DNA of 56,776 nucleotides from Escherichia phage Seurat. The position numbers and the translations under genes are program-made. Shown piece by piece: positions 3,882 through 48,518 of the stretch. The DNA is taken from sequence record NC_027378.1, one strand, 5' to 3'. The number at the start of each line of letters is the position of its first letter. The stretch's first letter is position 1. The notes below the pieces were generated by a model. That model was not told where the DNA came from. It saw only the letters and a list, made by a program, of their open reading frames with translations, and searched no databases.

Positions 3882-4754
3882 ATGAAAAAGAGTTCTGTAG
3901 CTATTAGTGTTGGTATGGCTTTAATTAATCCACGCGCTCGCGGTGAAGGTGATGTGGAACTGGAATACGAATATGCATCTGCGGAAGAGATCCCGGCAGA
4001 GTTTGCAACTCTTTACGCAGAGCAGGGCGGTAAATACGTTCTTGCAAAAGTTAAAGGTGTAGCCCCTGCTGATAGCGTTCGTCGTCTGGAAAGTGCATTG
4101 GCAAAAGAACGTAACGACCATCGTCAGGTGAAGCAACAGATTAGCGCACTTGGGCGTCCGGTTGAAGAAGTCCTTGCGGACCTTGATCGTATCCCTCAAC
4201 TAGAAGCTGCCGCTAACGGTAAAGGTACTCCAGAAGACATCGAAAAGATGGTTAAAGCCCGTCTTGCTCCGCTTGAGCGTCAATTGCAAACTGTAGCAGC
4301 TGAACGCGATTCCGTTAAGCAGGAAATTGAAGGCTACCGCACTCGCGAAACTAAAGCGAAGATTAAAGACGCAGTTATTGCTGCTGCATCCGGCGCTAAG
4401 CTGCGTCCGTCTGCTATCGAAGATGCGGTGACTTATGCACAGTTGCAAATGACCGTCGACGAGAACGGCAATGTGGTTACGAAAGATGGGGCGGGTGTAA
4501 CTCCATACCTAACCCCGGCGGATTGGCTTAACGAGATTCTCCCGAAACGTCCTCACTGGGTTGAGGGTTCTGCTGGTGGCGGTGCATCTGGTCCGGGCGC
4601 TGGCGGTCATCACGGTGAAGACCCATACAGTCACGACGGTTGGAACATCTCTAAGCAGATGAATCTCTGGAAAACTAATCAATCTTTAGCTAAACGCTTA
4701 GCTGAAAAGAATGGCGTAGATCCGCTGAAGCCTGTACGTCCTGCTAAGAAATAA
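3882..4754 (+). CDS. scaffolding protein (putative)
   Basis: 290 aa, charged helical coiled-coil-like sequence between portal and capsid genes. Confidence 0.5.
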   Translation: MKKSSVAISVGMALINPRARGEGDVELEYEYASAEEIPAEFATLYAEQGGKYVLAKVKGVAPADSVRRLESALAKERNDHRQVKQQISALGRPVEEVLADLDRIPQLEAAANGKGTPEDIEKMVKARLAPLERQLQTVAAERDSVKQEIEGYRTRETKAKIKDAVIAAASGAKLRPSAIEDAVTYAQLQMTVDENGNVVTKDGAGVTPYLTPADWLNEILPKRPHWVEGSAGGGASGPGAGGHHGEDPYSHDGWNISKQMNLWKTNQSLAKRLAEKNGVDPLKPVRPAKK

Positions 4755-4876: not shown

Positions 4877-5938
4877 ATGTCTAAATCTAAAATTATTCTG
4901 CCATTTGGTCGTGGTGAAACTGACCTGACTCGTTTGACGGATGTCATTGTCCCTGAGATCTTCACTGGTTATGTGCAGACGCAGACCGCTGAACTTTCTG
5001 CCCTGATCCAATCCGGTGCGGTTGTGATGGACGAGCGTTTATCAGCTAACCTTGCTGGTGCAGGTCTGACTTTTAACGAGCCGTTCTATAACGACCTGAA
5101 AGATGAAGACGAAGATATCGCGGTTGATAAAGGTAATCCGTCAAAACCGTCTAATATCACTACCGGATCTGAAGTTCAGGTTCGTATGAGTCGTTCAAAA
5201 TCCTGGGGTTCTGCGGATCTGGTATCAGCTTTGATCGGTAACGACCCAATGACCGCTATCGGTAATCGCGTGTCTGCGTGGTGGGTTCGCCGTCTGCAAG
5301 CTGCATACATCGCAACCTGGAAAGGTGTATTTGCTAATGCGAAGAAATCTCATAACGACGATTTGACTTTCGACATTTCTGGCGAGTCCTTTACGAATAA
5401 CCAGACCAACTTTACCGCGTCTAACTTCATCAACGCAACTGCAACGATGGGTGATGCTGCTCGCGGTCTGACCATGATTATGGTACACTCTACCGTTCGT
5501 AACCGTATGCGTCAGTTGAACCTGATCGACTTCATTCCGGATGCTCGCGGTGAAACTCAGTTTGAGTATTATCAGGGTCTGCGTATTATTGAAGACGACT
5601 CCATGCCGCACGATCCGTCTACTGGTGTGTTTGAAAGCTGGCTGTTCGGCCCGGGCGCGACTGCAATGGGTGCTGGATCACCGAAAGTTCCGACCGCTGT
5701 GGTGCGTGACGAAGCCGCTAACCAAGGCGCTGGTGAAGAAGTTCTTCACAACCGTGTTGAATGGATTCTGCATCCGGTTGGCCATGCTTGGGCTGCTGCT
5801 CAAACTGCTAAAGGTGGTCCGTCTAACGCTGCTACCACTAACAACCTGGCCCATGAAGATTCCTGGCGTCGTGCGTTCCCTGAGCGCAAGCAGCTTAAAG
5901 TTGCACGCCTGATTACTCGTGAGTATCAGGGTTCCTAA
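4877..5938 (+). CDS. major capsid protein (putative)
   Basis: 353 aa, position after scaffold, followed by a strong intrinsic terminator. Confidence 0.65.
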   Translation: MSKSKIILPFGRGETDLTRLTDVIVPEIFTGYVQTQTAELSALIQSGAVVMDERLSANLAGAGLTFNEPFYNDLKDEDEDIAVDKGNPSKPSNITTGSEVQVRMSRSKSWGSADLVSALIGNDPMTAIGNRVSAWWVRRLQAAYIATWKGVFANAKKSHNDDLTFDISGESFTNNQTNFTASNFINATATMGDAARGLTMIMVHSTVRNRMRQLNLIDFIPDARGETQFEYYQGLRIIEDDSMPHDPSTGVFESWLFGPGATAMGAGSPKVPTAVVRDEAANQGAGEEVLHNRVEWILHPVGHAWAAAQTAKGGPSNAATTNNLAHEDSWRRAFPERKQLKVARLITREYQGS

Positions 5939-25449: not shown

Positions 25450-25609
25450 TGTTTTGTTTTCCTTGTGCATTAAACCATGTACCTGACGGATCCTGCCATT
25501 GCTTAGGTGTCTTGTGGAGAAATACTACTCTGTTTTCACCGTAATAATTAATTCTTACGCCTGTGTGAGTATATTTACGTTTACCTTTTGGTCTTCTTAA
25601 GTTAGCCAT
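25439..25609 (-). CDS. small basic protein (56 aa), not in the ORF track
   Basis: ATG overlaps the DpdA stop (TGATG); MANLRRPKGKRKYTHTG...; no internal stops. Confidence 0.3.
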   Translation of the reverse strand: MANLRRPKGKRKYTHTGVRINYYGENRVVFLHKTPKQWQDPSGTWFNAQGKQNNDG

Positions 25610-26529
25610 CAGAACAACTCCATTACACGATCACGGAATGTGCCGTCATGGGTGGCGTTAATGTTTGCAGCAATTACACCATACGCCCATAAGTTGAAGG
25701 CAGCACGTGATTCATAGATTGTTGATAAACGTTCGTAAGTGAAACCGTTTTGCTCAAGGTATTTAAGGACAGCGTCTTGTTCAATTTCAGTTAATGTTGA
25801 AACATGCTTACCAAAATGATGGCGGTCCGGTGACTTATCTGAAACGCGCATTGGTCCCCACGGAGGGGTAACCACACTTCCAAACGCTGCCGCTTGTATC
25901 CAGGAGGATGAGTCGCAGCTATACCACGGGTAACGTTCCATAATGGTTGTGGACGTAATACCAAACGCATGAAGTTTAATCTTAGCACGTCCGCTACCGT
26001 CGCAAATGTATTTGTCCCACATGCGGTCAAGCCAAGTCTTAAGCGTGTCCGTGGAACGCCCTACCATGCCCCCGATGGTGATATATTCGTAGTTCTTCAT
26101 GTAGTATTCAAGATAGCGGAAGTCCTCCCCAAAGTGAAAGCAAGGTAACGGTTTAGCACCGCGTGCTTCCATTTCAAGCTGGTTACGGTAGGTTTGTAGC
26201 GGATCACCGATACCATCGAGCACCGATGCCATCACCGCACCATCTTCTACGCGAAGGATGTCTTTGTTACGCTTAATGTATTCGCAGTATTCAACAATAT
26301 CAATGTGAGCACCCAAAGAGTGCGCGGAGAATGCACCGGAGTCGAGAAACACTTTAGCCCCGTCCGCACGCATCTGATCAACATACTTTTGACGTCCAAC
26401 GTAGTGGTATGATTCCAAAATATGGGGCAGATTGCGCGTGATATTTTTCTCATGCTCCGACAGCTTTTCATAACGCTGCTGCCCGGGCATATATCCGTTT
26501 GTGTAAACTGCTGCCATAAAAACGTTCAT
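25609..26529 (-). CDS. dpdA: DpdA-like DNA-guanine transglycosylase (TGT family)
   Basis: FLDSGAFS motif matching the catalytic DSGGFQ region of tRNA-guanine transglycosylases; sits in the preQ0 gene cluster. Confidence 0.7.
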   Translation of the reverse strand: MNVFMAAVYTNGYMPGQQRYEKLSEHEKNITRNLPHILESYHYVGRQKYVDQMRADGAKVFLDSGAFSAHSLGAHIDIVEYCEYIKRNKDILRVEDGAVMASVLDGIGDPLQTYRNQLEMEARGAKPLPCFHFGEDFRYLEYYMKNYEYITIGGMVGRSTDTLKTWLDRMWDKYICDGSGRAKIKLHAFGITSTTIMERYPWYSCDSSSWIQAAAFGSVVTPPWGPMRVSDKSPDRHHFGKHVSTLTEIEQDAVLKYLEQNGFTYERLSTIYESRAAFNLWAYGVIAANINATHDGTFRDRVMELF

Positions 26530-26732
26530 TTTTGGAATGGTCCTCCAAACTGATCAATTAGTTCTAAGGTACGCCATGCATTATTAAATGCTTCGTCCGC
26601 TTGATGTTTAGCGTCAATAAGCTGCTGCTTTAAGACATTTGTAGGAGCATCATTCTGTATTGCAGAGCAAGCATCCGCAGTACCTGCTTTAAGCTTGTAG
26701 AATGCAGCTTCTAAAATTAATTGTCTTGACAT
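26526..26732 (-). CDS. hypothetical protein
   Basis: Start reset to MSRQLILEAAF... with RBS GGGGGA. Confidence 0.35.
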   Translation of the reverse strand: MSRQLILEAAFYKLKAGTADACSAIQNDAPTNVLKQQLIDAKHQADEAFNNAWRTLELIDQFGGPFQK

Positions 26733-26803
26733 ATTTCCCCCAATGACTAAAAAGCCCATACCAGTATTATGACCGATATGGGCTTGATCTGTAAAGCTAT
26801 CTA

Positions 26804-27412
26804 TTATTTACAAGCTTCAAGGAACTCCCGGCGCCATTCTTTACCAATATCGCTACCATGCTCCAGTTCTGTAGCGCCCCGGAACGCTTTGGTAATAGTA
26901 GAGCTTCCGCATACCTGCTTGACGCCACGACTTTCCATGCACATATGCTTGGCGTCAATATAAACACATACCGCTTTCGGATTCAGGTGTTCCTGGATAG
27001 CGTCAGCAATCTGGTTAGTTAGTCTTTCCTGAACTTGTAAGCGGCGTGCAAAAGCGTCAACCACACGAGACAGTTTGCTAAGCCCCACAATGCGACCGTT
27101 CGGGACATACCCCACAACAGCACGACCAATAATGGGAGCCATATGGTGCTCGCAATGACTGTAAACAGGAATATCCCGTACAATAACCATTTCATTAGTA
27201 TTTTCCGCCCCATCCTCAAAGGTCTTAAACAGCCCAGCAATATCTACATCGTAACCGCTAAACCATGTAGCATAGGCTTTAGCGACACGATCTGGAGTCT
27301 CTGCTAATCCTGGACGTAACTTAATGCAATCTTCAATCTGAGTTAGTAAAGTATGCACCGCGCGAGCAATACGGAATTGAGTACCTTCGTTATCAATAGT
27401 AAATTTTGGCAT
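26804..27412 (-). CDS. folE: GTP cyclohydrolase I
   Basis: 202 aa with the FolE signature YSHCEHHMAPIIG. Confidence 0.9.
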   Translation of the reverse strand: MPKFTIDNEGTQFRIARAVHTLLTQIEDCIKLRPGLAETPDRVAKAYATWFSGYDVDIAGLFKTFEDGAENTNEMVIVRDIPVYSHCEHHMAPIIGRAVVGYVPNGRIVGLSKLSRVVDAFARRLQVQERLTNQIADAIQEHLNPKAVCVYIDAKHMCMESRGVKQVCGSSTITKAFRGATELEHGSDIGKEWRREFLEACK

Positions 27413-27448
27413 GGTTTGCAGTTTCCTTGTTTGTTAATGTGGTCATAC

Positions 27449-27982
27449 TTACAGACTATAGTTTACGTGACATTTCGAAGTTTCTTCGATGGTGCATTCT
27501 ACAAGTTGAACACCATGTTCGTCAAGCAGTTGCGACCCAATTACTTCAACCATGTACGCAGCCAGGTTTTCTGCGGTCGGGTTGAAAGGCAGCGCTACCA
27601 GCGAGTCAAAGAAATGGTATCCGTCCTCTTGCTCTACCACGTCATACCCTATAGCAGCGTCGTGACGTAAAAGAGCATCGAGCCCTTTAATGAGAGGATC
27701 ATTTTCCCAATGCAGGAATTTATGATCCCAGTTATCTTCCAGCCATTGGCAGAGCGTAGTTTTGACCACACTAAAATCAATAACGCGCCCAACATCGTCC
27801 AGTTTACCTTCAACGGAGAAACCTTTCGCACCCGGGATGTAGTTTTCGCTTTCTACGCGCTTCGGCGCAACCTTAAAATGAAACTTATAGTTATGACCGT
27901 GAAGGTGGCGACACTTGCTTTCATGTCCTACAACACGATGTCCAGCACAAATTTCATGTGAACGAATTACTGTATAGCTCAT
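27449..27982 (-). CDS. queD: 6-carboxy-5,6,7,8-tetrahydropterin synthase
   Basis: CAGHRVVGHESKCRHLHGHNYKF zinc/catalytic motif. Confidence 0.85.
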   Translation of the reverse strand: MSYTVIRSHEICAGHRVVGHESKCRHLHGHNYKFHFKVAPKRVESENYIPGAKGFSVEGKLDDVGRVIDFSVVKTTLCQWLEDNWDHKFLHWENDPLIKGLDALLRHDAAIGYDVVEQEDGYHFFDSLVALPFNPTAENLAAYMVEVIGSQLLDEHGVQLVECTIEETSKCHVNYSL

Positions 27983-28524
27983 TTTAATACCTCTTTAGAT
28001 TGTTCGATTTCTAACGCACGCTGTGCAGACGCAATAATGTCTTTCAAATCTTCTACCAGACCTTTATGACCGCGTTCGCCCGGCTGTAATGCCTTTTTAA
28101 TTAAATGCTGTAAAGCTGGGTTAGTTGTTTTCCAAGCTTCCAAGACATCATACACGTCCACGATGCATTTTACAACATTGCCGTTTTGATCTTTACCATA
28201 AATAACTTTCTGATATTTATTCATGGGAATTTTAGACGGTTCGTATTTCGTAAAAATTGCGGTTTTATCAGTTCTCCAATAGGGTAGATTTGCTTCAATA
28301 GATTGTTTGACGTAATCCTCCGCAACGATATACCGCCAGGCTACTACATCCGACATCTTGAGTGGTAATGGTTTGGGATTGTCTGTATACCAATCCCAAC
28401 CAGTTCTATAATTCTTAACAATATTACCGCTAGCTAATTGAACTTCAAACTGCTCGTTTTGTAGAAAGATAGGCATCCCTTTGCCATCATGCTTGTGCCA
28501 AATTTTATTCAAATTATCTTTCAT
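27979..28524 (-). CDS. hypothetical protein embedded in the 7-deazaguanine cluster
   Basis: About 181 aa from MKDNLNKIWHKH...; no recognisable motif. Confidence 0.45.
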   Translation of the reverse strand: MKDNLNKIWHKHDGKGMPIFLQNEQFEVQLASGNIVKNYRTGWDWYTDNPKPLPLKMSDVVAWRYIVAEDYVKQSIEANLPYWRTDKTAIFTKYEPSKIPMNKYQKVIYGKDQNGNVVKCIVDVYDVLEAWKTTNPALQHLIKKALQPGERGHKGLVEDLKDIIASAQRALEIEQSKEVLK

Positions 28525-28526
28525 TT

Positions 28527-29006
28527 TTACGCTCTCGCTGTACGTGAATGAACTTCGTAAACAACCCAAAGGATAGCGGATGCTGTGAACTTACTTAAGC
28601 TCATTGCTACCATTGATCCCGGATTAACAATACCTATAATACTTAAGAACACAATGGAGTCAATTGGTACAGCTACCAAAGAGCTGATAAATACGCGTTG
28701 ATGGAAAGGCTTCTTCGTAATCGTGTATACCGCATAGTCCGCGAACTCACTGAGGGCAAAAGACGCAACTGATGCAACTACAACAGCAGGATCCCCAAAT
28801 ACCCAGCTAAGGATGCAACCGACAATCATTGCAGGGATAACACCTTTGCCTGCGTTACGCTGTGCATAGTCGCGCAACACAAAGATAATACCTACAAAGA
28901 AAGCCATCATCGGGACTACGCCAAGCGGCGTGTTAAGCATTGGAAGGTAGGAAAAGCCCAGGTTTACGAATGTAATTGCAGCCAAATAAGCGACGATAAA
29001 TTTCAT
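28527..29006 (-). CDS. integral membrane protein, candidate queuosine-precursor transporter (YhhQ/DUF165-like)
   Basis: About 159 aa, several TM helices; loose resemblance to YhhQ (SEFADYAVY, FGD); RBS TGGAGAA. Confidence 0.45.
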   Translation of the reverse strand: MKFIVAYLAAITFVNLGFSYLPMLNTPLGVVPMMAFFVGIIFVLRDYAQRNAGKGVIPAMIVGCILSWVFGDPAVVVASVASFALSEFADYAVYTITKKPFHQRVFISSLVAVPIDSIVFLSIIGIVNPGSMVAMSLSKFTASAILWVVYEVHSRTARA

Positions 29007-29126
29007 ACTTTTGTTCTCCAGTTTTAACAGCGGTATTCGCTGGTTGTTGGGTTTAAAAGCTTTAGTAGTATAGTTGGGTTCCCGCACCCTAAACAATGCG
29101 CTAGCGGTGCGGTTTTCGCGGTAAGA

Positions 29127-29834
29127 TCAAGCTTTGCTAATAAATTCGCTGTACCCTTTAGCACGAAGTTTGCACGCAGGACATTCACCGCAGCCATATC
29201 CCCAGTCATGCAGAGTGCGACGGACGCCGTTATAACACGTATGGGACTGCTCAATTACTGTGGTTAAGAAGCCAACCTTATCCGCCAGCTCAAACGTTTC
29301 TGCTTTATTTAAACGCATAAGCGGGGTAACGAAATGAATATCTGTTTCATATCCAACGTTTAACGTAGCTTCAAGCAAATCTACAAACTGCTGACGGCAA
29401 TCCGGATAACCGCTATAGTCCGTTTCGCAAACGCCCGTAACCACATATCGGGCGCCAACTTTCTGCGCGTAGGCGTGCGCGGTAGTCAGAAAAAGAGCAT
29501 TACGGTTTGGCACAAAGCTAGCCGGAAGGTTGTTGTGCTGTTCGTGATGTTCGTTAACATCACCTTCGTTCCCGATTAAAGCGCTATTGCCAATCTGTTT
29601 CAAAGCAGGTAATTCAAAGACAACAAATTGGACATCGTGCTCTTTACAAATCTGATTAGCACAAGCCAGCTCAATGTTATGACGTTGACCGTATGCAAAA
29701 CCAATAGCGTAAACCTTATCATAGTTATTAAGTGCAAGACCTAAACAGGTCACGCTGTCCTGGCCGCCAGACAGGACGACAACGGCGGAGTTATGATTTT
29801 TTACAGGGAATACCAGTTTATCTAATTTATTCAT
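29127..29834 (-). CDS. queC: 7-cyano-7-deazaguanine synthase
   Basis: PP-loop VVLSGGQDSVTC; C-terminal Cys cluster CYNG...GYGCGECPACKLR; stand-alone, no amidotransferase domain. Confidence 0.85.
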   Translation of the reverse strand: MNKLDKLVFPVKNHNSAVVVLSGGQDSVTCLGLALNNYDKVYAIGFAYGQRHNIELACANQICKEHDVQFVVFELPALKQIGNSALIGNEGDVNEHHEQHNNLPASFVPNRNALFLTTAHAYAQKVGARYVVTGVCETDYSGYPDCRQQFVDLLEATLNVGYETDIHFVTPLMRLNKAETFELADKVGFLTTVIEQSHTCYNGVRRTLHDWGYGCGECPACKLRAKGYSEFISKA

Positions 29835-29835
29835 C

Positions 29836-30024
29836 TTAGAACCCTTTAAGGCTAATATTAAGATTAACGACCACTTGTTCAACTACATCATCAGATGTCA
29901 TCTGACGCTTATGAATTTCAAGCTCCGAATGTATGTTCTTGGATGCAGCACGACAGATAGCGTCATTCAGCTCGTCTTGTAAACGTTGCATCTTCTGCAT
30001 AAGAATCACAGTCTCTTCATTCAT
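29836..30024 (-). CDS. hypothetical small protein
   Basis: 62 aa, helical, charged. Confidence 0.4.
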   Translation of the reverse strand: MNEETVILMQKMQRLQDELNDAICRAASKNIHSELEIHKRQMTSDDVVEQVVVNLNISLKGF

Positions 30025-30229
30025 CTTCTACACCTTTAATATCACAAGGATTGATTGTTACATTTGACATCACAATTGGATGATTGCGTGCTCCGATTGT
30101 ACTAACGTGATTAATATCTAATTCTACATGCACGCCCTGCATAGTAGCGTGAGCAATTGAAGAATTAAGTTTTTCTACCAGCTCAGTGATCATTTCCTGA
30201 TGCTGTTTCGCTTCTTCCAAAGTGATCAT
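30017..30229 (-). CDS. hypothetical small protein
   Basis: 70 aa. Confidence 0.4.
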   Translation of the reverse strand: MITLEEAKQHQEMITELVEKLNSSIAHATMQGVHVELDINHVSTIGARNHPIVMSNVTINPCDIKGVEDE

Positions 30230-30484
30230 TTAAACCTCCGTTAATGTTTGAGTCCAGTCTAAGCCTTCAAGGTCTACATCAGCTATTTCATCGTACTCGT
30301 AAGCTCCCGGATCTGCTGGCAGCCATCTATCAAATCGATGGCTGAGTTCTGGAGGAATTGCTTCATACCCCCAAACCTTCCCATCCTTGTCGGCTGCCAG
30401 ATAATCAACTCGACTTGGAACGGTTAAAGCGACACCACAAAAATTAACATCTTTAGTATGCACAACCTGACTTAATACACGCAT
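30230..30484 (-). CDS. small acidic protein, member of a three-copy paralogous family
   Basis: VPSRVDYLAADKDGKVWGYEAIPP...GLDWTQTLTEV shares motifs with the 51099 and 51682 proteins. Confidence 0.5.
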   Translation of the reverse strand: MRVLSQVVHTKDVNFCGVALTVPSRVDYLAADKDGKVWGYEAIPPELSHRFDRWLPADPGAYEYDEIADVDLEGLDWTQTLTEV

Positions 30485-31191
30485 TATTCCACCCCGATAT
30501 ATTTGTGGACCTGAAGCTGCAACGTGTACCCGTGTTTCATACAGCTTTGGACAACCGCTTGGATATTACTGTGGTTAAGGTCTTCATCCTGCTCGTCCAT
30601 TGGCTGTAAATATATCTTACCCTTGAAACCCTTCGGAGGTCTAGCGATAAATGGCGTAGCTTGATGATCTAATGCCTGAAGCGGCAAACCATCTTCCACG
30701 TTTACACAGCACGCTTTAAGTACATATTTAAATGCATTAGCGCGGCGCAGCACAGAAGGATGAATCTTTGAGGTCTTGGGACTACATACAATTACAGGTA
30801 ACTGGGAAAAGTTCTTAGGTAAAGGCATAGACCCATTAGTTTCAATTTGCACCAAATAGCCGCGCGATAACAGTTGTTCAATAAACGGGTTAATTTGCTG
30901 ACGGAACGGTTCACCCCCAGTGATAACCACAAGTGAGGTGCTATTACCTGATTCCAGCTTACGGCTTTCGATTAAACGCATAATATCAACAATATGATAA
31001 AGACTACGACCAACAGTATAATCGGTATCACAGCCAGGGCATTGCAGATTACACCCAGCAAGACGCACAAATACAGCAGGTTGGCCGCAGAATGGACCTT
31101 CACCCTGAATGGTAGAGAATACCGAATGCACGTCTAAATACATATCGTTTTCTTTAGAACGGGACTCGGGAGCTTGTTGATTAATATTCAT
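30484..31191 (-). CDS. queE: 7-carboxy-7-deazaguanine synthase (radical SAM)
   Basis: CNLQCPGCDTDY cluster-binding motif near the N-terminus; 235 aa. Confidence 0.85.
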   Translation of the reverse strand: MNINQQAPESRSKENDMYLDVHSVFSTIQGEGPFCGQPAVFVRLAGCNLQCPGCDTDYTVGRSLYHIVDIMRLIESRKLESGNSTSLVVITGGEPFRQQINPFIEQLLSRGYLVQIETNGSMPLPKNFSQLPVIVCSPKTSKIHPSVLRRANAFKYVLKACCVNVEDGLPLQALDHQATPFIARPPKGFKGKIYLQPMDEQDEDLNHSNIQAVVQSCMKHGYTLQLQVHKYIGVE

Positions 31192-31202
31192 CTTAAATCC
31201 TC

Positions 31203-31235
31203 TAGTGAAAAAGAAAGCGCCTCATTGGGCGCTTT
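31203..31235 (-). terminator. intrinsic terminator
   Basis: AAAGCGCC-caatga-GGCGCTTT followed by CTTTTTC on the minus strand. Confidence 0.55.
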
Positions 31236-31260
31236 CATTATAACGTGATATGTTTTGATA

Positions 31261-32073
31261 TTACAAGCCGTTCAGGGCTTCCGGTACTGGCATAGGTACG
31301 CGACCAGTTACACCATTAAACTTCTTCCAACGTGCATACTGAGTTTTAACGGTATCTTCGTTCAGACCGTGGCGACCTGCCAGATTCAGAACATAAGAGA
31401 TCGGAGCAGGCTGACCCAGCGTAGCGCTAATCTGATCCATCAGAGCCCAGGCACGACCGCAGGAAGTTTCAGGTTGCGGACGACGAACACCATTCTGTTC
31501 GGGCATACGGTTCGCTTCTTTCGCTTTTTCACGTTCAGCTTTTTCGCGGGCTTTTTCAGCAGCCTTTTCAGCCTGTTTAGCAGCGCGGATCTTGTCTTTG
31601 AAGCCTTTGATAGACGAATCCAGTTCGTCAACCATGCTCTGAGCAGCAGTTACTGCACCGGACAGATCTTCACCTTTGGATTTTTTAACAACTGCTTTCA
31701 GATCTTTCAGAGCATTCTTTAAATGCTTCAGCTGTTCGGAACCCTTAGATTCTGCTTCCGTAATCTGTTCAACAGTGCTTTCATCGGTAATACCGGATAA
31801 AGCAAGCTTCACGGTTTCAACTGCCTGGGAAAGAGTGGTAAATTTATTTTCCGCTTCAGTACGAATTTCAGCTTGTTTCTTTTCAGCGGCAGCTTTTTTC
31901 TCTGCTTCTTTTTTCTCTTTTGCTACGCGTGCAGCTTCAGCAGCAGCGGCTTTTTTAGCTTCTGCGTCGTTAGCAGTAGCTTCTTTCTTTGCAGGCTTAG
32001 CAGATTTTGCAGCGGCAGCAGCGGCTGCGGCAGCAGCGGCTTTCTTATCTTCAATATTACTCATTTTCTTCAC
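31261..32073 (-). CDS. Lys/Ala-rich histone H1-like protein with a C-terminal globular, possibly DNA-binding, domain
   Basis: N-terminal KKAAAAAAAAAAAKSAKPAKKE... low-complexity tract; C-terminal WALMDQISATLGQPAPISYVLNLAGRHGL. Confidence 0.5.
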   Translation of the reverse strand: MKKMSNIEDKKAAAAAAAAAAAKSAKPAKKEATANDAEAKKAAAAEAARVAKEKKEAEKKAAAEKKQAEIRTEAENKFTTLSQAVETVKLALSGITDESTVEQITEAESKGSEQLKHLKNALKDLKAVVKKSKGEDLSGAVTAAQSMVDELDSSIKGFKDKIRAAKQAEKAAEKAREKAEREKAKEANRMPEQNGVRRPQPETSCGRAWALMDQISATLGQPAPISYVLNLAGRHGLNEDTVKTQYARWKKFNGVTGRVPMPVPEALNGL

Positions 32074-32192
32074 TCCGAATTATTATGGGTTCGTTTGTTA
32101 CCAACGGGGTTAAATGTACCAAAGGATTTTGTGACACGCAACCCCTTACATAAACATTTTTTAAAAATATTTTTGATCAGGGTTAGAACTTA

Positions 32193-32687
32193 TTAGCTCT
32201 TCGCACCTCTGCCCGGTGTCCATGCGGCTTGCAATGCGGGTCGCTCACAAATGACCCTGGCACCGGAAATAATACCACCCTCCCGTTCAGCATCGTATTT
32301 GACACGGGCAGGTTTCCAAAGTCCTTCATCCATTGACGGTACGTATTGTCCAAGTTGAGGCGAGCAAAAGCCCTGGATATCATATTCCACACAGAATTCG
32401 GCTTGTGCGCTAATTTGGGCGTGATCCAGGATTGTTTCTGGAAGTTGCGTAAAGTAATCAGACAAAATGCGCTCAACGATTTCCCGTTCATATGGTGCAG
32501 CTCCTAAGTTTTCTGTCAGGTTAATATAAAGCATTTGAAGATCAACATCTTCAAGATCTTTTAAATCGTTTACCGGTGTTACCAGTGTTGACTCTGGACA
32601 ACAGATAATTCCAAGTTGGTGTAGTGTCAACCAATTGGGATGTTTTGCCAAGAGTTCAAATTTATCTGTATCAATTAGGACGTACAT
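32193..32687 (-). CDS. hypothetical protein
   Basis: 164 aa. Confidence 0.4.
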   Translation of the reverse strand: MYVLIDTDKFELLAKHPNWLTLHQLGIICCPESTLVTPVNDLKDLEDVDLQMLYINLTENLGAAPYEREIVERILSDYFTQLPETILDHAQISAQAEFCVEYDIQGFCSPQLGQYVPSMDEGLWKPARVKYDAEREGGIISGARVICERPALQAAWTPGRGAKS

Positions 32688-32746: not shown

Positions 32747-34723
32747 TTAGAACGGAACGTAATCCGGATCATCTGCTTGCACAGGATTAACCACATTGTT
32801 CACTGTTATACCTTGCGTATTCTGCGAAACAATATCGTCCCAGCTTACATCATCGTTATAGCTCGGACCTTCGGTTGTTCCATCCTGCCCGTATACTTTA
32901 ACCTGAATAGCTTGGTCGTCCTGCGGAGCTTCAAACTTACCGAAACACGTACCATCATAATCATAGTTCAATATCTCAGGCCATTTCTTATTGGTATGAA
33001 CTTTGATGTATTTTGGTGTTTTAAGCATTGCAGCAACATCAAGAGCTTCTTCAATAGTTTGTGGTAAAGGTAAATGTGTCCTTTTCTTCCACCATGCGAC
33101 AGCTTTACGACCTGCCCAGTCCCCATGAAGCAGAGCTACCCATTCACTGAATATTTTACTACCGCAATAATAAGTCACCTTCATTGTTGGAGGTTTAGAG
33201 CTGTCATTGCGTTTAGTATGCTTTGCATAAGTAACATGCGTAACTTTGAAGTCTTCAACTACTGGAATATCCTGCTTGATCAGGGCTTCCGTACTTGCAG
33301 CTTTCTTGAGTTTGGTCTGGAACTTAAACTCATGACCGCAAAAGCCTTCTTTAACGTAATCCGTCCCGCGTAGCCTAAATCCTTTCAGATATAATTGTTG
33401 AACTTGTTCCTGTGTGACGCTGTCCATTGGGATTGGTGCGAAGCCACCGCAATAGCGAGCAGATGCATGATTATACGACCCACATACATCGCATTCTTTA
33501 ACCGGAGCAGTACCAGCACCTTTTTCGCCAGGTCGCTTGGGTTTAACAGGGTCGTTAATAGGGCCCAAACGGCGCGTATTACCGCTGAAATCCAGTACAA
33601 GGCAGTTCTGCTTGGGGCTTGCTGCAATAGCTTGTAAGCGCCCCTCCTGCGTGGAAAGATCAAACCCCTCCGCGTACACCGGACGCGTACCGCGACCCAG
33701 CATCTGGACCCATAGCACCGCCGATGCAGTGGGGCGGAGCATGATAATTAAGTCCAGCATTGGATGATCAAAACCTGTGGTTAAGACGTTATTGTTAGTT
33801 AATGCTCGAAATTCACCGCGCTTAAACTTCTCAATAATCTCGTCACGTTCTTTTGCATCAAGCTTAGAGTGAATACATCCACAGCTAATACCCATATCGT
33901 TCAGCATATCACACGCGTCTTTAGCGTGTTCAATACCAGAACAAAATATAAGCCAGCTTTGACGGTCTTCACCACATTCAATCGCTTCCTCAAGTGCGCG
34001 GAGTGTTGCGTCATCGCGGTTTACCGCACTTTGCAGCTCACTCTGGATAAACTCACCGCCGCGTTTACCTACCCCGTTGAGGTCCAGCTCCATCTTAGTA
34101 CGCTTTGGCACAACCGGAAGAAGATAACCTTGCTCCAGGAACCAGTTGAAGGCTTCCGGAGTAGTTGCATCAAACGTCACCTTATCAAATAACGCATCAT
34201 CGTCTTCGTTTTCCTTAACAATTGAACCATACCCCAGTCGATAAGGTGTAGCAGTAAGGCCGATGATTTTTAAGTAAGGGTTAACTTCACGCAAAGCTGC
34301 AAAGAACTTCTTATACATTGTTGCATCACGTGGACTAATAAGATGCGCTTCGTCCACAAAAATAAGATCAACTTTGCCGAACTTTTTCGGATGCTTAGCA
34401 ACGGACGCAACTCCTGCAAAGGTAATAAGATTGTAGACTTCTTTACGCTTCAAACCCGCGCTGTAAATACCTGCTGGCGCTTCGGGCCAGACTTTCATTA
34501 ATTTATCATAGTTTTGTGCAATTAACTCTTTGACGTGAGTTAACATCATTACGCGCTGGTTTGGATACCATTTGTAAAGCAGATCGAGGAACCCCGCGAT
34601 AACGAGCGATTTTCCTGTCCCTGTTGGTAACAGGATCAAAGGGTTCCCCGCGTTACCCTTTTCAGCATCAAAATAGCGGAATACGCTATAAACTGCTTCC
34701 TGTTGATAATCGCGGAGTTGCAT
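32747..34723 (-). CDS. SF2 DEAD/DEAH-box DNA helicase with C-terminal zinc-ribbon region
   Basis: LRDYQ; Walker A LLPTGTGKSLV; DEAH box IFVDEAHLIS; motif VI GRGTRP; CDVCGSYNHASARYCGG. Confidence 0.8.
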   Translation of the reverse strand: MQLRDYQQEAVYSVFRYFDAEKGNAGNPLILLPTGTGKSLVIAGFLDLLYKWYPNQRVMMLTHVKELIAQNYDKLMKVWPEAPAGIYSAGLKRKEVYNLITFAGVASVAKHPKKFGKVDLIFVDEAHLISPRDATMYKKFFAALREVNPYLKIIGLTATPYRLGYGSIVKENEDDDALFDKVTFDATTPEAFNWFLEQGYLLPVVPKRTKMELDLNGVGKRGGEFIQSELQSAVNRDDATLRALEEAIECGEDRQSWLIFCSGIEHAKDACDMLNDMGISCGCIHSKLDAKERDEIIEKFKRGEFRALTNNNVLTTGFDHPMLDLIIMLRPTASAVLWVQMLGRGTRPVYAEGFDLSTQEGRLQAIAASPKQNCLVLDFSGNTRRLGPINDPVKPKRPGEKGAGTAPVKECDVCGSYNHASARYCGGFAPIPMDSVTQEQVQQLYLKGFRLRGTDYVKEGFCGHEFKFQTKLKKAASTEALIKQDIPVVEDFKVTHVTYAKHTKRNDSSKPPTMKVTYYCGSKIFSEWVALLHGDWAGRKAVAWWKKRTHLPLPQTIEEALDVAAMLKTPKYIKVHTNKKWPEILNYDYDGTCFGKFEAPQDDQAIQVKVYGQDGTTEGPSYNDDVSWDDIVSQNTQGITVNNVVNPVQADDPDYVPF

Positions 34724-35698: not shown

Positions 35699-36580
35699 TT
35701 ACTGCTGCCACGGCGGGACTGCTGCTTGTGCTGGATGCGGTTCAGCTTGCTGCTGCGGCTGAGCTTGCTGCTGAGGCGCTGCTGCCTGACCCGGCTGTGC
35801 TACCTGCTGCGCCCACGGCTGCTGAGCTGCTTCCGGTGCTACTGGCTGTTGTACCGGAGCTTGCTGCACTGGCTGCTGTGGTGCTGCGTTTTGAGCAGGA
35901 TTATCCCACGGCTGCGGTGCTGCGTTCTGCCACGGTTGAGCTGCTGCGCCCTGCTGCGGTGCTGGTTGCTGCACAGGTTGCTGAACAGGCTGCTGTTGCT
36001 GTACCGGAGCTTGCTGCTGTACAGGTGCTTGCTGTTGCTGAGCAAACGGGTTAGCTGCTGGCTGCTGTGGCGCTGCGCCCGGGAAAGTTGGCTGCTGTGC
36101 TGGCGCACCTGCACCAAACGGGTTAGCTACTGCTGGAGCACCCATTGATGGAGCCTCTGCTGCTTTTTCTGCATATTTAACCGGATCGTTGATGTTAGCG
36201 TAACCGTTAGGCTCGTTGCTGTCTTCATAACCTTCCTGAGAACGAACTTTCAGACGCAGGTTCAGCGGAATGTTATGCAGCTGAGCAGGGGTATCCCAGC
36301 GAATTACACCAACCGCATGGGACAGAGCACCCAGTTGCTCGTAAGCGATGCGTACAGTATCTTCGTTGTCGTTAATGACGTTATAACGAGCAAAGATTTT
36401 ACGCCCTTTAGCAAAACCGTCAATGATGCTAAACGTTACCTGGATCGCCATACCGCCATTTTTGGTCGGTTTAAATTCAGATGCTTCAATTACTGCTTTA
36501 TACCAACCTTTCGGCAATGCGCCGTAAGAAGGTGCTTGATAGCTGCTCGCGTCAAAGTGGAAATTAGTTGGCATAGTCAT
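35699..36580 (-). CDS. putative ssDNA-binding protein with a Gln/Pro/Ala-rich disordered C-terminal tail
   Basis: Globular N-terminal about 150 aa, then about 140 aa of QQPVQQ/APQQ repeats; adjacent to the Sak4-like ATPase. Confidence 0.45.
   Translation of the reverse strand: MTMPTNFHFDASSYQAPSYGALPKGWYKAVIEASEFKPTKNGGMAIQVTFSIIDGFAKGRKIFARYNVINDNEDTVRIAYEQLGALSHAVGVIRWDTPAQLHNIPLNLRLKVRSQEGYEDSNEPNGYANINDPVKYAEKAAEAPSMGAPAVANPFGAGAPAQQPTFPGAAPQQPAANPFAQQQQAPVQQQAPVQQQQPVQQPVQQPAPQQGAAAQPWQNAAPQPWDNPAQNAAPQQPVQQAPVQQPVAPEAAQQPWAQQVAQPGQAAAPQQQAQPQQQAEPHPAQAAVPPWQQ
35700..36130. repeat. CAG/CTG-rich low-complexity coding repeat tract
   Basis: Repeated GCTGCTG/CTGCTGC units encoding the Q/P/A-rich tail; generates spurious ORFs in several frames. 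Confidence 0.7.
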
Positions 36581-47903: not shown

Positions 47904-48518
47904 TTAACCCTCCAAGCCGTTATATTTGCGCCAGGCGTAGAACTGAATGGCTACCGTCGTCCCGTTGTAAGAAGGCATTGCAGCTTTCATTTCTTTCAGC
48001 TCCGGCGTGCGGCCCAGTTCCTTCAGAAGCTTGTCGCCCATTGCCCACACTTCGGCAGTTTTTCCTTTCAGGGGCTTGCGAGCGCCATTTTTGAAATCAC
48101 AGCGAGCAGCTTTTACATCCTGTTTTGGCGCGGCAGCTTTTGGCTCTTCAATTTTGATTTCAGAAACCTGCGTGGCAGCTTTTGCGTGTTTCATATCTTT
48201 CTCTTCCTCCTGCTCCAGAGCTTCGAGGCAGCTTTTGACGATTTCCGGATTTACCATCGGGCGCAGTACCGAGACGCTGGCAGCTGGCGCGGCGGTCGGT
48301 GCCGGGACTTTCTGCTCCGGCTGTTGCGCTTTTTCGTGATCGCGAAGCACCTGAAGCACTTCCTTTTCGACAATGTAAAAACCGATGTCGTCCTGATGAA
48401 TTAACTGTTCGTGTGCGTCGCGTGCAACCTGACCCCAACGGTTCTTCAGGGCGCGGCGTGCATTCGTTTTCATGGTGTAACGCATTTTGTCCTGTTCGCG
48501 GTGAGTTACTTTAGACAT
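47904..48518 (-). CDS. hypothetical early protein
   Basis: 204 aa. Confidence 0.45.
   Translation of the reverse strand: MSKVTHREQDKMRYTMKTNARRALKNRWGQVARDAHEQLIHQDDIGFYIVEKEVLQVLRDHEKAQQPEQKVPAPTAAPAASVSVLRPMVNPEIVKSCLEALEQEEEKDMKHAKAATQVSEIKIEEPKAAAPKQDVKAARCDFKNGARKPLKGKTAEVWAMGDKLLKELGRTPELKEMKAAMPSYNGTTVAIQFYAWRKYNGLEG

Follow-up and report, generated by a model that had tools for sequence, protein, structure and literature searches.

TF1 of Bacillus phage SPO1 is an HU-family protein that prefers DNA containing hydroxymethyluracil, and p16.7 and the histone-like p6 of phage phi29 are abundant early proteins that organise the replication of phage DNA. p16.7 consists of a coiled coil and a small C-terminal three-helix DNA-binding domain and multimerises on DNA. 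For phages with 7-deazaguanine in their DNA, the field has so far attended to the enzymes of the modification (QueC, QueD, QueE, FolE and DpdA). Here we describe a conserved non-enzymatic gene that travels with the cassette for these enzymes in Gram-negative and cyanobacterial siphophages (957 clusters, 148 isolated phages), as found in the genome of Escherichia phage Seurat (NC_027378.1; 56,776 nucleotides (nt), referred to as the window), a CAjan-like Seuratvirus of the Queuovirinae. The locus is 98.8% identical to that of Escherichia phage CAjan and the product equals CAjan gp46, the name used here. No study of the gp46 protein was found in the literature, and the family stands in the databases as hypothetical proteins.

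We tentatively propose, with slightly less than even confidence, that gp46 is an abundant, non-virion, architectural nucleic-acid-binding protein of the phage DNA replication and modification module. The original prediction for this open reading frame (ORF) was a histone H1-like, Lys/Ala-rich protein, nucleoid-associated or DNA-compacting, in a phage with modified DNA. Its broader part, an abundant DNA-associated protein in a modified-DNA phage, is compatible with our analysis and gains support from a predicted winged-helix-like fold, the highest codon adaptation in the window and the position of the gene in the module; the histone likeness is not supported, as described below.

The conserved domain, helical tracts and predicted abundance of gp46

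The gp46 gene and the parts of its product are as follows.

31261..32064, (-) strand: coding sequence (CDS) of the gp46 protein, stop included; 267 amino acids (aa) from the ATG at 32064
31855..32064, (-) strand: N-terminal Lys/Ala/Glu-rich tract, residues 1-70 (K 21%, A 41%, E 14%, P 1%; net charge +5)
31585..31854, (-) strand: central helical region, residues 71-160 (AlphaFold predicted local distance difference test (pLDDT) 90-98)
31510..31584, (-) strand: second Lys/Ala/Glu tract, residues 161-185 (K 24%, A 36%, E 24%; net charge +2)
31285..31509, (-) strand: conserved C-terminal domain, residues 186-260, a beta-hairpin (QNGVRRP) followed by three helices

In the AlphaFold model of gp46, which was built on a 93-sequence alignment and has a mean pLDDT of 89.6, the end domain contains a predicted beta-hairpin at residues 189-194 and short helices at 201-216, 222-231 and 236-249. 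Its pLDDT of 90-96 bears out the earlier view that the C-terminal end is globular. These ∼75 residues probably adopt a winged-helix-like or helix-turn-helix-type fold and are putatively DNA-binding. Conservation was assessed in an alignment of 93 sequences (A1) and in a diverse alignment of 105 sequences (A2). W206 and W246 are invariant in A2; P188, N191, P196, Y243, G254 and R255 occur in all sequences of A1 and in 82-99% of those in A2. Positions 182, 186, 194, 195, 197, 240, 245, 247, 248 and 255 are basic (at least 70% K/R) and position 204 is basic in 63%, with D210 as the sole conserved acidic position. The third helix, the putative recognition helix, hardly varies between phages that infect cyanobacteria, alphaproteobacteria and enterobacteria. 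The K/R residues at 194, 195, 197, 240, 245, 247, 248 and 255 are consistent with a third helix and wing that contact DNA, and the near-invariance of the helix across hosts would point to a generic target, which could be the DNA backbone, a modified base or a conserved protein encoded by the same phages.

The clusters containing this domain (counted at 50% identity) come from an exhaustive search of 1.84 billion representative proteins at E ≤0.001. The domain is C-terminal in the great majority of members and N-terminal in P0223, P0235 and P0249. Two copies are present in P0134, P0135 and P0237 and three in P0121, with Lys/Ala/Glu linkers between them, and other loci contain tandem domain-bearing genes. 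In P0111, P0159, P0160, P0179, P0208 and P0230 a product of the type encoded by the neighbouring gene gp47 is fused to a Lys/Ala/Glu tract and the domain. Multivalency is further supported by the reuse of the domain on other N-terminal parts, as in homologs of gp47 and in a paralog within the window:

32193..32687, (-) strand: gp47 (CAjan gp47, phrog_7864), 164 aa, the upstream partner gene, matching positions 1-163 of a 242-position profile
47904..48518, (-) strand: divergent paralog of gp46, 204 aa, with a different N-terminal part, a Pro/Ala linker and the domain at residues 137-204

The gp47 product is truncated here and has no copy of the domain, whereas its homologs in phages 9g, ply2008005c and Me-ZS1, in S0112 and in several metagenomic loci end in a domain copy of their own. 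The last 68 residues of the paralog align with A2 (hhalign probability 97.5%, E 6e-12) and match the family hidden Markov model (E 2.3e-11), and the paralog shares phrog_21588 with gp46. Phage 9g has an equivalent pair, gp09 and gp37, of which gp37 is the counterpart of the paralog. Three copies, or three successive domain genes, occur in some phages, for example in ply2008005c (gp52 and gp53; L103, 39100-40326) and Yong-L2-223 (L095).

Ahead of the end domain, helices are predicted at residues 4-20, 31-90, 98-128 and 135-184, of which the last three pack as an antiparallel three-helix bundle that is intramolecular in the AlphaFold monomer. The pLDDT is 55-77 across the first 30 residues and above 86 thereafter. 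The second Lys/Ala/Glu tract is part of predicted helix 135-184 and forms a helical linker into the end domain. The central helical region is specific to members of the Seuratvirus/Nonagvirus type (phrog_11298 and phrog_18634), and a Foldseek search of the full model against the PDB returned generic three-helix, spectrin-like or designed bundles alone (best E 0.21). The run of 11 alanines described earlier is present (residues 9-19 from the ATG, nt 32008-32040), as is the string KKAAAAEAARVAKEKKEAEKK; the run is 7-11 long in close relatives and absent from more distant ones. Such a run is expected ∼6e-6 times in a 267-aa protein with 20% Ala. With 233 homologs, and with its end domain in 957 clusters, gp46 is no chance ORF. 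A low-complexity N-terminal half had also been described, and a tract of this kind does exist, but it covers only residues 1-70 (26%), with the second tract at 161-185; residues 71-160 between them are ordinary helical sequence.

The composition of these tracts is not that of a histone tail. In the non-domain parts of 257 members the sequence varies while the composition is kept, with medians of 17.6% K, 30.5% A and 13.9% E. Their median net charge is +0.018 per residue and they are therefore polyampholyte helices and not H1-type polycations. The Lys/Ala tract of gp46, likened to histone H1 in the original prediction, is likewise Glu-rich, near-neutral, predicted to be helical and partly contained in the three-helix bundle. 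H1-like tails were seen only in rare members such as P0251 (MATKKKVATRKKVAKKAAPKK...), where the net charge is +0.48 per residue, and P0252, which has an AKKA/PKKA N-terminal stretch and yet a net-negative non-domain part.

Predicted abundance was estimated from the fraction of optimal codons (Fop) in 82 non-overlapping ORFs, scored against a general set of E. coli optimal codons. The gp46 gene ranks first of the 82 with an Fop of 0.731 (mean 0.503, standard deviation 0.076, z = +3.0), compared with 0.704 for the major head protein, 0.703 for the DUF669 SSB-like protein and 0.648 for the scaffolding protein, and the bias is even along the gene. That the DUF669 SSB-like protein and the major head protein (35699-36580 (-), 4877-5938 (+)) occupy the next ranks is an internal check that the measure tracks expected abundance. 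Phage 9g provides an independent replicate, its homolog gp09 ranking first of 60 annotated genes (0.767; major head protein, 0.741). The paralog at 47904-48518 ranks fourth of 82 in the window (0.653). From its codons, gp46 is apparently very highly expressed, and further support comes from the consensus GGAG, from intergenic regions of its own and from a terminator after the gene. The signals concerned are:

32076-32073, (-) strand: Shine-Dalgarno GGAG, read from the sequence, 8 nt upstream of the ATG
32113..32141, (-) strand: candidate sigma-70 promoter (TTGCGT, 17-nt spacer, TACATT; 8/12 matches), under the threshold of the scan
31236..31213, (-) strand: intrinsic terminator between the gp46 gene and queE, found by terminator scan (9 pairs, of which 6 are G-C, a 6-nt loop and a T-run)

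The ORF originally listed (31261..32073, (-) strand) is 270 aa long if started from the GTG at 32073, an upstream in-frame codon that overlaps the Shine-Dalgarno GGAG. The true start is almost certainly the ATG at 32064, because the GGAG lies 8 nt upstream of it and the CDS is 804 nt in every annotated relative, and the length given earlier is corrected accordingly to 267 aa. The GGAG recurs at a matching distance in most of the first 20 related loci listed. The candidate promoter is weak and sits in a 119-nt A+T-rich intergenic region. Across the family, the 160 nt upstream of the gene have an A+T content of 0.557 versus 0.486, and the mean best sigma-70-like score of the upstream regions is 8.24 versus 7.09 in random windows. 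An inverted repeat (GGGGTT...AACCCC, 28-nt loop; 32106-32145, (-) strand) overlaps the candidate promoter, and the record of phage SA80RD annotates a 'terminator' there. The terminator after the gene, which had been noted before, is real here and in close relatives, and the SA80RD record annotates one at the same site (31213..31236). It is not a trait of the whole family, given that a crude hairpin scan after the gene found a hairpin in 34 of 79 loci versus 27 of 75 in a control region, and its use as a family hallmark was rejected. A replication origin or initiator was also considered; no iteron-like repeats were found in or around the gp46 gene, and the direct repeats at the gene are merely GCN/AAR codon repetition.

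Profile searches with gp46 gave only sub-threshold, composition-driven matches in Pfam and no match in NCBIfam; SMBP, Mitofilin, keratin and PqiB (Pfam, NCBIfam, and PDB sequence and profile searches) were discarded as composition-driven noise. A linker-histone identity for the C-terminal domain is not upheld, since neither Linker_histone (PF00538) nor any other Pfam family matches gp46 or the 105 diverse members. The KfrA_N, H-NS and Bac_DNA_binding (HU/IHF) profiles match neither gp46 nor these 105 members, and gp46 has no Pfam or NCBIfam match to AraC-type helix-turn-helix or DJ-1/PfpI-like domains. PF18780 (HNH_repeat), a homing-endonuclease-associated repeat with a putative DNA-binding helix-turn-helix, remained below threshold, with E 0.095 in 1 of the 105 members of A2 and E 0.039 against the paralog at 47904-48518 (14.8 bits, cut-off 26); the two independent weak matches may hint at remote kinship. 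gp46 is a member of phrog_11298 (E 1.6e-120), phrog_18634 (E 3.7e-30) and phrog_21588 (E 9.6e-8), but these families have no functional annotation and membership explains nothing. A structure search of BFVD returned family members and remote paralogs only, with 'Transcriptional activator' as the lone and unsupported label. In the same search four proteins with neighbouring accessions (A5A3S7, A5A3S9, A5A3V4 and A5A3V9), probably from one phage, showed the same fold. Public records call members of the family 'transcriptional activator FtrA domain-containing protein', 'plectin 1', 'outer capsid protein' or hypothetical. The spectrin-like bundle explains the 'plectin' label; the 'FtrA activator', 'plectin' and 'outer capsid protein' labels are without profile support and should not be propagated.

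Genomic context and co-distribution with the 7-deazaguanine cassette

The gp46 gene belongs to the early replication block, on the strand opposite to the structural genes, and lies directly upstream of queE, as had been stated earlier. The neighbouring genes that mark its position are:

32747..34723, (-) strand: superfamily 2 (SF2; DEAD/ResIII) DNA helicase, conserved, which bounds the interval on its upstream side
30484..31191, (-) strand: queE, first gene of the 7-deazaguanine cassette and the next gene downstream of gp46
25609..26529, (-) strand: dpdA, DNA 7-deazaguanine transglycosylase, present with the domain in every context examined

In 80 related IMG/VR loci the order of genes is invariant: ligase, Sak4, DUF669 (SSB-like), Cas4-type exonuclease, SF2 helicase, (gp47), the gp46 gene, QueE, QueC, QueD, FolE, DpdA, clamp and PolA. 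QueE directly follows the gp46 homolog in 79 of the 79 viral loci with room for it, with the helicase on the other side. Architecture variants, distant metagenome members and isolated phages of Rhizobium, Stenotrophomonas, Microcystis and Shewanella have the same neighbourhood. In Synechococcus phage Yong-L2-223 the domain is encoded downstream of DNA polymerase I, and the queE-dpdA cassette lies upstream in the same region. The sole locus without nearby que genes (L007, which encodes a three-domain protein) has a DpdA homolog two genes downstream (E 1.4e-24).

The interval from helicase to clamp (25609-32687) contains gp47, gp46, queE, small ORFs, queC, a preQ0 transporter gene, queD, folE and dpdA. 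In comparison with L100, L101, L104, L105 and L106 it behaves as a single presence/absence block. One of its small ORFs (84 aa; 30230-30484, (-) strand), situated between queE and the following small genes, is confined to some of the close relatives and was found by tblastn in 2 of the 80 related loci.

Among 50,697 phage records, 148 contain the domain and 235 a DpdA homolog. Counted by genus, the numbers with the domain and with dpdA are 39 and 39 for Escherichia, 31 and 32 for Pseudomonas, 23 and 23 for Vibrio, 13 and 14 for Rhizobium, and 8 and 8 for Enterobacteria, a near one-to-one match that applies to Gram-negative siphophages. In 100,044 bacterial and archaeal species genomes there were three domain matches, all on phage-like contigs of metagenome-assembled genomes with the same synteny, and thus there is no bacterial or prophage context from which to learn. 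The helicase family is wider, being found in 493 phage records. In five phages (PaMx42, DLP_1, Pavpe01, Pfeifenkraut and Loki) the module keeps this order but lacks the cassette (helicase, 0-2 small ORFs, clamp), and the domain is absent from the whole genome of PaMx42 and from the 13-20 kb regions of the other four. This cassette-less arrangement is seen in Septimatrevirus, Lokivirus, Pavpe01 and Pfeifenkraut. The cassette is present in Stenotrophomonas phage ply2008005c, a mosaic with head genes near those of Septimatrevirus and replication genes near those of Queuovirinae. The domain is confined to phages that carry the que/dpdA cassette, and this includes the unlinked paralog.

These features can be combined into a working scheme. 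The basic winged-helix-like domain, multivalency, predicted abundance at the level of capsid and SSB proteins, and position in the replication block point to a stoichiometric nucleic-acid-associated protein. The end domain would contact double-stranded DNA through its basic hairpin (R194, R195 and K197) and third helix (K240, R245, K247 and K248). The helical part would act as a spacer or mediate self-association, which would allow several domains to work in concert, and relatives would gain the same multivalency by two or three tandem domains. In this way gp46 would coat, bridge or organise replicating phage DNA stoichiometrically, not as a rare gene-specific regulator. Given the strict co-distribution with the cassette, the suggested substrate is phage DNA containing 7-deazaguanine.

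Several observations weigh against this proposal. Codon bias is a proxy for abundance only, here with a general E. coli codon set, and the upstream promoter match is weak (8/12). No characterised homolog of the gp46 family was found. Mycobacterium, Arthrobacter and Cellulophaga have dpdA phages but are missing from the list of genera with the domain. The five cassette-less phages form one clade in an unbootstrapped neighbour-joining tree of the helicase, and because of this the co-distribution may reflect a single event of gain or loss. Finally, a gp46-type protein is not needed for base insertion, because 9g DpdA and Gat-QueC alone modify up to ∼18% of G in E. coli plasmids (PMC6884629). Together with the dpdA phages of actinobacteria and Cellulophaga that lack the domain, this reconstitution led us to reject an obligatory DpdA cofactor analogous to DpdB. 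In Gordonia and Mycobacterium phages (H121, H127 and H129) the DpdA homolog adjoins a protein with a ParB-like nuclease domain at the genome end, a neighbour that recalls bacterial DpdB; those phages lack a gp46-type domain.

Alternative roles of gp46

A more specific role, which we regard as unlikely, is that the conserved domain reads or organises 7-deazaguanine DNA, by analogy with TF1 on hydroxymethyluracil DNA. The third helix (Y243, W246, R245, K247 and K248) would then enter the major groove, into which preQ0, G+ or ADG extends its C7 substituent, and gp46 would mark, organise or protect the modified phage genome or raise the efficiency or processivity of DpdA on replicating DNA. Such a role would explain why every copy of the domain, the distant paralog included, is found only in que/dpdA genomes.

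RPA32C and the MCM C-terminal winged helix act as docking adaptors, and gp46 might similarly be a protein-protein adaptor whose winged-helix-like domain docks on the helicase, clamp, polymerase, DpdA or a host factor such as RNA polymerase, its variable N-terminal parts being functional cargo or spacers. We consider this rather unlikely, as the domain has 10-11 conserved basic positions versus one conserved acidic position, some members have DNA-type AKKA/PKKA tails, and an abundance predicted to equal that of the major head protein is unusual for an enzyme adaptor. A transcription factor for specific genes, which would turn on the que operon or the middle or late genes, is distinctly unlikely, although the predicted fold is of the helix-turn-helix type, several records are labelled 'transcriptional activator', and the que operon follows the gene directly, beyond a terminator. 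The 'FtrA domain' label comes without an AraC, DJ-1 or other Pfam match, the highest codon adaptation in two genomes is atypical of a regulator, and no repeated operator-like motif was found around the gp46 gene. Moreover, the putative recognition helix is near-invariant across phages of very different hosts and composition, which speaks against a sequence-specific operator, since operator sites evolve rapidly in step with the regulators that bind them.

Electrostatic DNA compaction by the Lys/Ala-rich tail, as in histone H1, has in its favour the H1 layout of a winged helix with a basic tail, a Lys/Ala-rich composition and Ala11 run that are real, and the rare relatives with truly basic sequence (P0251 and the N-terminal stretch of P0252). 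In view of the near-neutral, helical tract of gp46 itself it appears very improbable. A role unrelated to DNA, as a scaffold, cytoskeleton-like or envelope-associated protein, is exceedingly improbable. It could appeal to the spectrin-like bundle, to the high predicted abundance and to the labels 'plectin', 'outer capsid protein' and 'membrane protein involved in colicin uptake' in some records. These labels, however, follow composition only and have no Pfam support, the gene stands in the early replication block opposite in strand to the structural genes, and gp46 has no hydrophobic segment. The window already has a gene for the head scaffolding protein at 3882-4754, and the homolog is not among the virion proteins named in the text of the Vid5 mass-spectrometry study. 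On the gene position, the separate scaffolding gene and the Vid5 text, a virion or inner-capsid protein was likewise rejected. We therefore retain, with the reservations given above, an abundant architectural protein of the replication and modification module as the preferred role of gp46.

Comparison with known systems

DNA binding by gp46 would establish a new family of phage chromatin-like proteins; a preference for modified DNA would, in addition, place gp46 beside SPO1 TF1 and make it the first protein to read 7-deazaguanine DNA. A direct comparison can draw on existing phages, with a dpdA deletion mutant of CAjan made by CRISPR-Cas9 editing and published (PMC6884629); wild-type CAjan DNA contains dPreQ0, that of the mutant is unmodified and that of 9g contains dG+. 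TF1 sets the precedent of a chromatin-like phage protein that suits the modified DNA of its own phage. Both proteins are phage-encoded and very abundant (gp46 by prediction) and come from phages with a modified base, but TF1 is a dimer of the HU/IHF type with an unrelated fold, and a preference for modified DNA is proven for TF1 and hypothetical for gp46. phi29 p16.7, with its coiled coil and small C-terminal DNA-binding domain, resembles the predicted layout of gp46, and it too is an early protein of a replication context, abundant as gp46 is predicted to be. Unlike gp46, which lacks a hydrophobic segment and any detected sequence relation to it, p16.7 has an N-terminal membrane anchor and a homeodomain-like fold.

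The histones H1/H5, Hc1/Hc2, AlgP and the HupB tail have in common with gp46 the layout, predicted in the case of gp46, of a winged-helix-type domain with a Lys/Ala-rich low-complexity extension. gp46 differs from histone H1 in that its tract is Glu-rich, near-neutral and helical, the hairpin of its end domain is N-terminal to the helices, and there is no linker-histone match. Bridging proteins of the H-NS type and plasmid KfrA join a helical self-association region to a small DNA-binding domain, a layout that gp46 may share, and are similar to it in being Ala-rich and mostly alpha-helical. However, the DNA-binding domain of KfrA is N-terminal, so that the order is the reverse of that in gp46, and the AlphaFold monomer of gp46 forms an intramolecular bundle. 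By analogy, gp46 would work most like the phage chromatin-type proteins (TF1, p6 and p16.7) and the bridging proteins (H-NS and KfrA), while being a member of none of these families.

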